Source of the DNA: a virus
Taxonomy: Duplodnaviria > Heunggongvirae > Uroviricota > Caudoviricetes
Length of the DNA: 17,658 nucleotides
Virus record (IMG/VR): IMGVR_UViG_2671180727_000013
Location: 1-17,658 of that record
Strand: one strand, 5' to 3'
The notes under the pieces were generated by a model. The model saw only the letters and a list, made by a program, of their open reading frames with translations. It did no database searches and had not been told where the DNA came from. This document shows, in pieces, positions 3,845 to 5,416 of this stretch. The position numbers were made by a program, and so were the translations under genes. How positions within the stretch are numbered: the stretch's first letter is position 1; the number at the start of each line of letters is the position of its first letter.

Positions 3845-4438
3845 TTACTGTTTGTTGTAAACAAAACCAATATCTTTCTTGTGAGGCATATCTGCTGCGG
3901 AAAAAGCTGCGATCTTCGCGAGTCGATCACATATTTCATTTTCACGATGCCCGGCGTGACCTTTAACCCACTTCCAGCGAACATTATGTCGACTTGCAGC
4001 CTCATCCAGACGCTTCCACAGATCAACATTCTTTACCGGTTTTTTGTCAGAAGTCACCCATCCATTGCGTTTCCACCATTTCATCCACTGTGTCATGCCG
4101 TTTTTCAGATACTGGCTATCAGAGTGCAAAATAACGTTGCATGGATATTTCAAACGCTCCAGCCCGATAAGTGCCCCCATCATCTCCATGCGGTTATTGG
4201 TGGTGCTATGAAAACCATCTGAGAACTCGCGTTCCTCACCACGATACTGGAGAACTATACCGTAACCGCCCGGGCCACCCGGATTTTTAAGGCAAGAGCC
4301 ATCACTGAAGATTTTCACGGTTTTAAGCTGGGGATTGAACTCTACGACAGGCGTTGTGGAATTGGTGCGGGGAGAATTTTTGTTTTTGGCTTTTTTGCGA
4401 GTTTTTTCTTGCGATCGGGCTGGTGTCTTCGTCGTCAT
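3845..4438 (-). CDS. rnhA: ribonuclease HI-like protein with a ~40-aa basic N-terminal extension
   Basis: [57 protein letters not shown] match E. coli RNase HI motifs. Start set at the ATG at 4438 (MTTKTP) because AGGAG lies 5 nt upstream; the track's longer ORF start has no SD. Confidence 0.85.
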
Positions 4439-4439
4439 A

Positions 4440-5021
4440 TAAACTCCTGAATCAAGCGCCGCGCCGATTTTTTCCTCGCGCGTGCGCACACGCGTGCGTG
4501 TTAATAATTATTAAAATAAACAAATTACTTCCCAGAACAGGTTTTTATAAACCTGAACTGAACGAACGAAGTGAGTGAAGTTCACCTCGAACGAAGTGAG
4601 AGGTTGTCTTTTCAGGTAATACTCTCCCAGGGAGGTGAGTATAAAAATCCCTCACCAACCTGGTCGTTTCATAACCTGAAAAGTTATGGCCTAAGTCTAC
4701 TGCCAGCTTAGACTTGGGAAGTTATGGATGACAGCACCCCAGAACCGAGATCTTCCCACACTTTATGAAGGGGAGTACTGGATTCAACCTCTCTAAACAC
4801 CCCAGACTCGACAATCATAAAGTGACCCTTGTCTCCGCTCACTTTGGTTCCCCCTTCCCCGACACCTAAACGGCACCGGTTCTACGCTGGTAGTGAGCTT
4901 TTTTAAACCTGACGCCAGTGACGCTTACCCCCACCCATCAGGTCGAGTCTCCAGTCTACGACTGGAAACTATCAGATCTTAGCACTTACAATTCACTTTA
5001 TGAATAGTTTGTACTTATCTA
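4440..5021 (-). other. ORF-poor, repeat-rich structured intergenic region (candidate ncRNA, regulatory hub or origin)
   Basis: No ORF of 60 aa or more on either strand; 12-nt direct repeat GAACGAAGTGAG at 4564..4575 and 4589..4600; several hairpins and long-range inverted repeats (details in findings). Confidence 0.4.
4477..4500. repeat. 24-nt perfectly alternating pyrimidine-purine GC-rich tract (Z-DNA-prone), with embedded palindromes
   Basis: CGCGCGTGCGCACACGCGTGCGTG read directly; includes CGCGTG-CGCA-CACGCG hairpin; followed by 14-bp AT palindrome TTAATAATTATTAA at 4501..4514. Confidence 0.6.
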
Positions 5022-5252
5022 TCATTGTGATTGATTATTTTCTCTACCATGTAGTTGAACATTCAAGGCAAACACCTCATTGATCAACTCACCTAAAAGC
5101 TGTTCAACAAGTTCGCGATGCTCGCCAAGATGCAAGCACTTAATTGCCCATTCGTACAAGTTGAAAGCCTGCTCACGATCTTTCATCATTTCACGAGCCT
5201 GGGCCAGAAAATCGCTCTCTACGAGCGCAACGACATTAGTCGGGTATGACAT
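5022..5252 (-). CDS. hypothetical small protein (76 aa from the ATG at 5252)
   Basis: Track ORF 5022..5276 trimmed to the internal ATG that has AAGGA 7 nt upstream; the first ATG lacks an SD. Confidence 0.45.
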   Translation of the reverse strand: MSYPTNVVALVESDFLAQAREMMKDREQAFNLYEWAIKCLHLGEHRELVEQLLGELINEVFALNVQLHGRENNQSQ

Positions 5253-5340: not shown

Positions 5341-5416
5341 AGTCTCTGATACAAAACAGCCTGCTTCCGTATATTAATAATTAATATGTAGTTATTTATA
5401 TATACAGAAGCAGGCT
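5341..5416 (-). terminator. terminator-like long hairpin after the methyltransferase gene
   Basis: Arms 5358..5374 and 5400..5416 pair over 17 positions with one mismatch; 25-nt AT-rich loop containing ATTAATAATTAAT; minus-strand tail GTTTTGTAT. Confidence 0.35.

Follow-up and report, generated by a model that had tools for sequence, protein, structure and literature searches.

A probable structured non-coding RNA gene next to the RNase HI gene of SSU5/pHCM2-like phage-plasmids

Introduction

The 17,658-nucleotide (nt) stretch of viral DNA analysed here, referred to as the window, belongs to an SSU5/pHCM2-like phage-plasmid. It shows 99% identity to the Escherichia phage-plasmid CMS-2020a and 98% identity to the phages PhiR41_1 and Cyrano, and the stretch is 81-85% identical to Salmonella phage SSU5 and Klebsiella phage-plasmids. 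Between the gene coding for a 76-amino acid (aa) protein and the RNase HI gene it includes a region, positions 4440-5021, that a sequence-only reading had described as free of ORFs (open reading frames) of 60 aa or more and dense in repeats and hairpins, the candidates being a structured non-coding RNA (ncRNA), a cluster of processing sites and a replication origin with iteron-like repeats. No complete ORF of that size was indeed found inside it; only two ORFs reach into the region, both overlapping its left edge. The gap is unannotated in the related records examined, the sole exception being that of Cyrano, which lists a 44-aa "hypothetical protein" named CYRAN_81. What is such a region for?

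We consider it probable that the region is a free-standing gene for a multi-domain structured ncRNA of about 455 nt, encoded by the minus strand and, in the model that we propose, acting in trans. The narrower claim, that it is a genuine structured ncRNA gene, can be made with greater confidence. The comparative data show that the RNA has a conserved base-paired architecture, made of 5' hairpins, a centre closed by a long-range helix, and 3' hairpins, and that it has no conserved ORF. Among the candidates named from the sequence alone it is the structured ncRNA that was borne out, by covariation, the lack of a conserved ORF, a conserved promoter and published expression data. Phage-plasmids of the SSU5/pHCM2 type occur commonly in Enterobacteriaceae of clinical and livestock origin, and the control of the biology of these elements is little understood.

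Results and Discussion

Conservation and distribution of the RNA gene

Homologues were collected from IMG/VR contigs, reached via the RNase H protein; from GTDB genomes and JGI/ENA metagenomes, via exact motifs; from PLSDB, INPHARED and RefSeq E. coli, by BLAST; and from the neighbours of the 76-aa protein. The RNA gene is present in 687 PLSDB plasmids (Klebsiella, 310; Escherichia, 195; Enterobacter, 88; Salmonella, 49, including S. Typhi pHCM2), in 232 of 5,426 complete E. coli genomes, in 12 phage records and in 54 metagenome contigs, human-gut metagenomes among them. Nearly all copies reside on replicons of about 110 kb, and the family is confined to SSU5/pHCM2-like phage-plasmids of Enterobacteriaceae.

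The core of the region (4529-4947) has 89-96% identity between clades, while the flanking RNase H, 76-aa protein and Dam coding sequences have 72-81%. The non-coding stretch is therefore the most constrained sequence of its neighbourhood, and yet it was left unannotated in the records examined, about 690 plasmids and 232 complete E. coli genomes among them, if the spurious ORF of Cyrano is set aside. More distant copies were reached through the 76-aa neighbour: L149, on a plasmid of Buttiauxella sp. WJP83 (CP110081.1; 88% identity), L146 (82%), and L143-145 (67%). Scans of metagenomes and GTDB added no deeper diversity. Across hosts, the unpaired nucleotides of the RNA are conserved as well as the paired ones.

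A consensus secondary structure supported by compensatory changes

Folding confirmed that the density of structure is beyond chance. In the minus sense, the segment 4515-4970 folds with an energy of -167.8 kcal/mol, compared with -139.3±6.2 kcal/mol for dinucleotide shuffles (z = -4.6; 0 of 100 shuffles were as good), and for the core z was -3.3 (minus strand) and -3.6 (plus strand). A repeat search recovered the direct repeats CGAACGAAGTGAG (4563-4575 and 4588-4600) and ..AAGTTATGG (4674-4689 and 4712-4727) that had been noticed in the sequence-only reading, as well as the inverted pairs 4608-4620/4671-4683, 4759-4768/4815-4824 and 4804-4812/4942-4950, and the two local hairpins, GGTGAG/CTCACC and CCAGTC/GACTGG, are also present. 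Most of these repeats turned out to be helix strands of one consensus RNA structure (Table 1), the two 13-nt direct repeats providing strands of P3, P8 and P9. The comparative data lend no support to the 4804-4812/4942-4950 pairing or to an extra repeat copy at 4993-5004, which is found only in the E. coli clade. The long-range pairings 4524-4534/4715-4725 and 4993-5003/4815-4825 were dropped because they are uncompensated in L143 or clade-specific.

Two outcomes named in the sequence-only reading as speaking against the idea, a lack of covariation in homologous regions and repeats not conserved in relatives, were examined, and the RNA reading withstood both. Three alignments were used, A1 (25 non-redundant copies), A2 (61 sequences) and A5 (29 sequences, aligned with plain MAFFT and including the distant copies). 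RNAalifold predicted 129 pairs from the 25 non-redundant copies, and 11 of these show compensatory double changes, compared with 4.4±1.1 in shuffles and 0-3 when partners were slid. In A2, 149 cells change on both sides (32±7 in the control), and in A5 both sides have changed in 37 of 144 pairs, versus 14.7±2.5 in shuffles (0 of 500 reach this number) and 5-11 in the slid controls, with 97.2% of the cells pairing. The slid-partner control preserves relatedness and so is the fairer comparison; it too was clearly exceeded. The central domain is uninformative in the main family because this family is shallow and the domain invariant, and it covaries once the distant copies are added.

These changes also favour one strand. 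Read in the minus sense, 98.6% of the cells are canonical, with 9.9% G·U, compared with 89.0% canonical cells in the plus sense; independent RNAalifold consensus folds had energies of -258 and -220 kcal/mol, with 14 and 9 compensated pairs, for minus and plus respectively. At one pair, the G-C, G·U and A-U intermediates make sense only in a minus-sense RNA. The minus-sense strand is thus favoured by G·U content and consensus energy, and the orientation of the promoter described below agrees.

The 5' domain is the most variable part of the RNA (81-94% identity) and yet the richest in compensatory changes, with five compensated pairs in P0, five in P1 and three in P2; the sequence of the P0 hairpin differs in every clade while its stem is kept. 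The central domain is nearly invariant within the main family, and comparison with L143/L145 and L146/L149 revealed double-sided changes in eight pairs of P4, three of P5, one of P5a, five of P6 and two of P7a. In the 3' hairpins, GGUUU/AAACC of P10 is replaced by GGGG/CCCC and by GGGA/UCCU. Pairs in P3, P7, P8 and P9 are at present invariant. The second copy of the 13-nt repeat is absent from L143, where a GAGG-GAAA-CCUC hairpin takes the place of P9. A covariance model built on the central domain, named R1, matches members of the family only.

Table 1. Features of the RNA gene and its surroundings, in window coordinates; helices are listed in the minus sense.
Feature	Position	Strand	Remarks
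Predicted structured ncRNA gene, ~455 nt	4513..4969	-	5' end from promoter geometry; 3' end from last helix and U-rich tract
Putative -35 hexamer TTCATA	4999..5004	-	sigma-70; 17 nt upstream of the -10 box
Putative extended -10 TGcTAAGAT	4976..4984	-	hexamer 4976-4981
5' domain	4837..4969	-	P0, P1, A-run, branched P2/P2a/P2b
P0	4969-4947	-	5'-terminal hairpin; includes CCAGTC/GACTGG
P1	4944-4906	-	long hairpin
A-run	between P1 and P2		
P2 with P2a/P2b	4898-4837	-	branched
Central domain	4598..4835	-	closed by P3; holds P4, P5/P5a, P6, P7/P7a
P3, long-range closing helix	4835-4825 with 4604-4598	-	encloses P4 through P7
P4	4824-4759 (4759-4782/4801-4824)	-	
P5/P5a	4758-4715	-	
P6	4713-4689	-	
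P7/P7a	4683-4608	-	P7 is 4608-4621/4670-4683; tip of P7a is GGTGAG/CTCACC
3' hairpins	4527..4597	-	P9 and P10, possibly enclosed by P8; hold both 13-nt direct repeats
P8	4593-4597 with 4527-4531	-	unsupported: invariant or broken
P9	4592-4564	-	invariant in the main family
P10	4561-4532	-	covaries
U-rich tract UUUGUUUAUUUU	4513..4524	-	after the last helix; possible termination region
44-aa ORF, GTG start	4708-4842	-	annotated as CYRAN_81 in Cyrano
RNase HI	3845-4438		Pfam RNase_H domain at residues 40-178 of 197
Upstream-extended GTG reading of the RNase H frame	3845..4489		overlaps left edge of the region
74-aa TTG ORF	4354..4578	+	overlaps left edge of the region

Promoter, ends and expression

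The conserved core is separated from the stop codon of the 76-aa gene by 70 nt that are free to vary between clades, except for the pattern TTnA-17 nt-TAnnAT. Within this otherwise variable flank the TTnA of the putative -35 appears in other clades as TTTAAA, TTTACG and TTTACC, paired with the -10 hexamers TAAAAT, TAGAAT and TAACAT, respectively. T4981, A4980, A4977 and T4976, which make up TAnnAT, are invariant in 29 of 29 sequences of A5 and 61 of 61 of A2, and the surrounding columns vary. The -35 of the window matches the consensus at 4 of 6 positions, below the threshold of a consensus scan. The geometry of this promoter places the start at about 4969-4970, the first base of the 5'-terminal hairpin 4947-4969. 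At the other end, the last helix ends at 4527 and is followed by the U-rich tract, an AT-rich spacer and the RNase H leader; a U-rich tract after the structure is found in most clades (GUUUUUCUUUUCU, UAUAUAUUUUU).

Right after the stop codon of the 76-aa gene, at 5006-5021, most clades have a perfect palindrome, GGTAAGTACTTACC, which the window has in the degenerate form GATAAGTACAAACT. It may set the 76-aa gene apart from the RNA promoter, as a terminator or a processing hairpin.

Expression data are available for Cyrano. The paper describing this phage re-analysed RNA-seq of strain LF82 and included among its "morons" CYRAN_81, with expression 12-fold over the median of the prophage (PMC9928086). 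Since CYRAN_81 is a spurious ORF in the middle of the RNA gene, its values serve as a measure of the RNA. They ranged from 6.8 to 10.35, as log2(FPKM+5) (FPKM, fragments per kilobase per million), across all five conditions (PMC9928086, Table 1 and S1), which covered lysogeny broth (LB), cell-culture medium and the inside of macrophages, the highest being that at 6 h after macrophage infection (PMC9928086). The corresponding values were 3.1-5.8 for CYRAN_80, the 76-aa gene, and 2.6-5.0 for the RNase H gene (PMC9928086), so that the signal is 6-40 times that of either neighbour in every condition. It falls before the RNase H gene, and inside macrophages the RNA and its neighbours increase together. 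The transcript is therefore abundant in lysogens of the 98%-identical Cyrano, well above both neighbours. The search for a discrete transcript that had been suggested from the sequence alone was in this way answered in part: at gene level the signal stands above both neighbours. No description of the RNA was found in the literature, this RNA-seq table being the only relevant item.

At least two of the 13 "morons" published for Cyrano are probably RNA genes rather than proteins. CYRAN_81 (OV696614.1, 78657-78791) lies inside the ncRNA, and CYRAN_40 (OV696614.1, 39144-39356) runs antisense across tRNA-Thr and tRNA-Ser genes.

The locus downstream of the RNA and a possible role as leader

In the main family RNase HI always follows the RNA, which lies about 75 nt upstream in the same orientation, and the sequence-only reading had implied a functional tie between them. 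This tie proved not to be obligatory, as two lineages keep the RNA with no RNase H gene downstream. In L143-145 the next genes code for an unknown 200-aa protein and a Tad2-like (anti-Thoeris) protein, and in L149 a Gabija pair replaces RNase H with the RNA intact. Conversely, L147 and L148 keep a 74-aa gene and two RNase H genes and have no homologue of the RNA detectable by R1 with filters off. The occurrence of RNA without RNase H and of RNase H without RNA in different lineages indicates that the RNA is an autonomous unit and the downstream locus variable; the latter looks like a variable defence/anti-defence slot. In the distant RNase H phages L073-L081 the genes are tightly packed, with no comparable gap, and R1 finds nothing.

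Some details of these lineages can be added. In L143 (4105-4416), of an Enterobacter/Cronobacter-type divergent lineage, the Tad2-like match scored 31.6 bits with a cut-off of 25. The Gabija pair of L149 (3395-5231) consists of an OLD/TOPRIM ATPase and a UvrD-like helicase encoded by the opposite strand directly downstream of the RNA, and only the first few RNase H codons are left. In L147 (2760-3195, Logan contig SRR28417476_158) the syntenic 436 nt fold with z = -6.2, more strongly still than the RNA. No relatives of this stretch were found; it contains an unverified 65-aa ATG ORF and an equally unverified 109-aa TTG ORF, and could represent an uncalled gene or else a non-homologous RNA in the equivalent place. 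It may be, then, that position rather than sequence is conserved at this locus.

The alternative that survives best, which we nevertheless regard as unlikely, is that the RNA works in cis on the early operon downstream, as its leader or attenuator. In lysogens most transcription would stop at the 3' structure, and on induction it would read through into RNase H and the genes after it, with the folded RNA as the platform on which attenuation or antitermination is decided. The shared orientation and short distance in the main family are what would be expected of it, as are the steep fall of the RNA-seq signal from the RNA to RNase H, the joint rise inside macrophages, and the conserved GC-rich alternating tract, variable A-run and ribosome-binding site that come after the RNA. 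On the other hand, a riboswitch or cis-regulatory leader defined by a constant downstream gene was rejected, since that gene is RNase H in some lineages and the 200-aa and Tad2-like genes or the Gabija insertion in others. An AT-rich spacer with promoter-like sequence lies between the RNA and the operon, and there is no conserved pairing of the RNA to the RNase H ribosome-binding site, the match UUCAGG/CCUGAA being found only in the E. coli clade. With its ~455 nt and more than 10 helices the RNA would also be oversized for this function; to our knowledge, the known attenuators and put-type antiterminator RNAs are all far smaller.

The 39 nt at 4463-4501, between the RNA and the RNase H start, read in the minus sense ACACGCACGCGTGTGCGCACGCGCG, GAGG, and then an A-run. 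They include a perfectly alternating purine/pyrimidine tract of 25 nt (4477-4501), which is Z-DNA-prone and has no second copy in either the window or the Cyrano genome. Other clades preserve the alternation with a different sequence, and the A-run that follows varies from 5 to 9 in length among near-identical copies. An AT-rich stretch, 4503-4526, comes after the RNA.

A primer RNA or a DNA-level element

We consider it improbable that the transcript is the primer of an R-loop-type origin, comparable to ColE1 RNA II or to the promoter-plus-unwinding-element origins of T4, i.e. that it invades the downstream AT-rich and alternating DNA, is cut by RNase H and primes lytic or plasmid synthesis. 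The setting does suit such a role: the RNA gene lies within a replication and nucleotide-metabolism module, it is followed by the AT-rich stretch, the alternating tract and then the RNase HI gene, its RNA is made constitutively in the plasmid state, and the 5' half of this RNA is G-rich, with the runs GGGUGGGGG and GGGGAAGGGGG. In T4, UvsW regulates the R-loop origins, and Cyrano encodes T4-like UvsW, UvsY, gp32-like SSB and RecA. Against it, the element already has a RepA replicon, with RepA about 17 kb from the RNA gene in Cyrano; RNA and RNase H are evolutionarily separable; the G skew is the same as in the flanking genes; and neither iterons nor, in or near the region, a DnaA box were found. 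An antisense control RNA gives no sign of itself either. No plus-strand promoter points into the 5' part of the RNA, as a ColE1-type RNA I partner would need, and P1 has four G·U pairs, which would be A·C mismatches in an antisense hairpin. The 76-aa neighbour was modelled as three helices, with a predicted local distance difference test (pLDDT) score of 80, and found no fold match in PDB at E<=0.001; it is therefore not a Rop analogue.

A purely DNA-level element (an iteron origin, a protein-binding array or a packaging site), with RNA structure as a by-product of inverted repeats, is very improbable. It would account for the two exact 13-nt direct repeats 25 nt apart, for the many inverted repeats, and for the better folding of both strands than of shuffles. 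However, the compensatory changes involve G·U intermediates, which form pairs in the minus-sense RNA alone, in L143 the direct repeat is lost and a hairpin kept, no tandem array or extra repeat copies are present, and the locus gives rise to abundant RNA. The replication origin with iteron-like repeats proposed from the sequence alone falls with it: such an origin has at least three direct repeats of about 17-22 bp beside an initiator gene, and the region includes only two 13-nt copies, the second absent in L143, with no tandem array and no DnaA box, while RepA is some 17 kb distant in Cyrano.

Absence of a conserved coding sequence

That the region encodes a small protein, its conservation being that of an mRNA, can be dismissed almost entirely: the 44-codon GTG-start ORF exists, is annotated in Cyrano and was counted as an expressed "moron", but it is broken in 7 of 25 representatives, no ORF of a 67%-identical homologue preserves more than 11% of the residues it encodes, the substitutions track base pairing rather than codon position, and it has neither a family match nor a gene called by PGAP, the RefSeq pipeline, which calls none in the gap across 232 E. 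coli genomes. A 46-aa antisense ORF fares the same: frameshifts or stops disrupt each of the two in 7 of 25 representatives, with the downstream nucleotides nearly invariant. The divergent homologues retain no ORF of 12 codons or more and no hydrophobic segment. An mRNA of a type I toxin-antitoxin system (hok/sok-like) was likewise removed from consideration, since there is no conserved and no hydrophobic small ORF; the highest 15-residue Kyte-Doolittle mean was 1.45, and no membrane helix was found.

In Buttiauxella gaviniae ATCC 51604 (L082, 4782-6188) the 3' two-thirds of the RNA are in frame with a 387-aa protein, of which the 44-aa frame seemed to form the C-terminus. Codon 341 of an sbcD-like gene has here been fused to the middle of the RNA through loss of about 14 kb, with an inferred CAAA microhomology, which gave the chimeric ORF; a LysR gene follows it. 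As a deletion joint in a decayed remnant, this fusion has no bearing on coding or modularity. L063 and L065 are likewise decayed phage-plasmid remnants.

Proposed mode of action

In our model, transcription would start near 4969 from the RNA's own constitutive -35/extended -10 sigma-70 promoter and run directly into a protective 5' stem-loop. It would mostly end, or the RNA would be processed, in the U-rich tract at about 4513-4524, before a separately controlled and repressed early lytic operon. In the plasmid (prophage) state the RNA would accumulate in stable form and act in trans via its invariant loops and linkers, most likely by serving a conserved protein, of the host or the phage, as scaffold or decoy and not by antisense pairing to the element's own transcripts. 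A trans-acting, protein-binding RNA is favoured because the unpaired nucleotides are conserved, no antisense target was detected and the gene that follows can be exchanged. In the 108-kb Cyrano genome, complementarity to the RNA reached at most 13 nt (E = 0.6), and none beyond chance was found in the window. The RNA is probably a new family of autonomous structured ncRNA that acts in trans.

Several points weigh against this interpretation. The family is shallow, most members being at least 87% identical, and only two lineages diverge further. Many of the double-sided changes are shared among relatives by inheritance, for which reason the count relative to shuffles is not a probability. The promoter of the window matches the consensus at only 8 of 12 positions plus the TG, and a simple promoter scan does not call it. 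The Klebsiella clade has no U-tract, and the 3' end is not a canonical intrinsic terminator according to a terminator scan; both ends of the RNA are deduced from sequence. The RNA-seq support is a gene-level count over 135 nt of unconfirmed strand-specificity. In the main family the RNA always stands ahead of the RNase H operon, and so may have a role in cis there. Finally, the trans-acting, protein-binding mechanism was reached by exclusion.

An RNA made in the plasmid state from within a silent lytic module is a prime candidate for a regulator of copy number, induction or host interaction. It is also a new, tractable large structured RNA that can be studied in the E. coli K-12-compatible phages PhiR41_1 and Cyrano. 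A more far-reaching idea, which we put forward as a speculation with rather poor prospects, is that it founds a new class of large functional RNA of phage-plasmids, either as the subunit of a ribonucleoprotein or ribozyme governing the plasmid-versus-phage lifestyle, or as a structured R-loop primer defining the lytic origin of a T4-like replication system.

Gene neighbourhood

The genes surrounding the region are all carried by the minus strand and constitute a lytic nucleotide-metabolism and replication module, in the order ribonucleotide reductase, MazG-like protein, thymidylate synthase, dihydrofolate reductase, kinase, 3'-5' exonuclease, Dam, 76-aa protein, RNA gene and RNase HI. The RNase_H domain of the latter is preceded by some 39 residues rich in Lys, Thr and Pro, an N-terminal extension that is conserved least of all parts of the gene, and the SSU5 record annotates a longer N-terminus that reaches into the RNA leader. 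The AT-only palindromes TTAATAATTATTAA and ATTAATAATTAAT, similar to each other, are located at 4501-4518 and 5373-5385 and nowhere else in the window or in Cyrano, so that as a pair they flank the 76-aa gene and the RNA gene. Other clades have different AT palindromes at the corresponding spot. These elements may be operators or promoter elements of repressed lytic operons.

Comparison with known RNA families and systems

The covariance-model search that had been suggested as a check on the structured RNA matched no family: at the gathering score there were no Rfam 15 matches in the whole window, and at E<=10 the best match within 4300-5200 reached 21 bits against a threshold of 56 bits and was to an unrelated viral stem-loop. 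The families covered included ROOL, GOLLD, OLE, 6S, tmRNA, RNase P, introns, riboswitches, C4 and Sok. ARAGORN found no tRNA or tmRNA genes in the window.

Small regulatory systems show partial resemblance. The immunity RNAs of P1/P7 (c4), P4 (CI) and N15 (CA) are also prophage-state RNAs whose constitutive promoter heads a lytic or antirepressor-type operon, and SSU5 has an Ant gene about 2 kb downstream of the RNA. Immunity RNAs are about 70-90 nt long and act via short repeats complementary to downstream sites in their own operon. In contrast, the present RNA is five times larger, has no complementary sites and no match to the Rfam C4 model. An RNA of the P1 c4 or P4 CI type was rejected because the window contains no more matches to the 13-nt repeat than chance would explain (6 matches versus 4.3 expected, all others carrying 3 mismatches). 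A type III antitoxin RNA (ToxI-like), which has repeats of about 35 nt in tandem ahead of the gene for an endoribonuclease toxin, was rejected for want of a tandem array, Tandem Repeats Finder returning no rows at its lowest threshold.

With 6S RNA and CsrB/CsrC, which sequester proteins, the RNA shares being abundant, stable and structured, with invariant loops and no detected antisense target; theirs is the kind of mechanism favoured here by exclusion. Unlike 6S RNA, it does not consist of a single long hairpin with a central bubble, and no Rfam match was found; unlike CsrB/CsrC, it includes about nine GGA motifs where some eight would be present by chance, both figures coming from a rough hand count and estimate.

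The likeness to ColE1 RNA II and the T4 R-loop origins consists in a structured, constitutively made plasmid transcript of about 450-550 nt with easily unwound DNA next to it, an RNase H gene in the main family and T4-like replication genes. It differs from both in that a separate RepA replicon exists here and the RNA is also kept where the RNase H gene is missing, and from ColE1 in having neither an RNA I-type antisense partner nor a Rop-like protein.

The RNA resembles in general character the large "ornate" orphan ncRNAs of phages and prophages, ROOL and GOLLD, as well as OLE, which are also several hundred nt long, multi-domain, strongly conserved in secondary structure, encoded by mobile elements and, as is predicted for the present RNA, transcribed on their own. 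GOLLD is about 800 nt long, and the present RNA is smaller. It has no match to the Rfam models of these RNAs even at E<=10, resides in phage-plasmids of Enterobacteriaceae with no adjoining tRNA genes, and is expressed in the lysogenic state, as seen in one data set. Structured RNAs encoded by prophages are a known kind, and the RNA described here, having no relative among the described families, is a new family of that kind.

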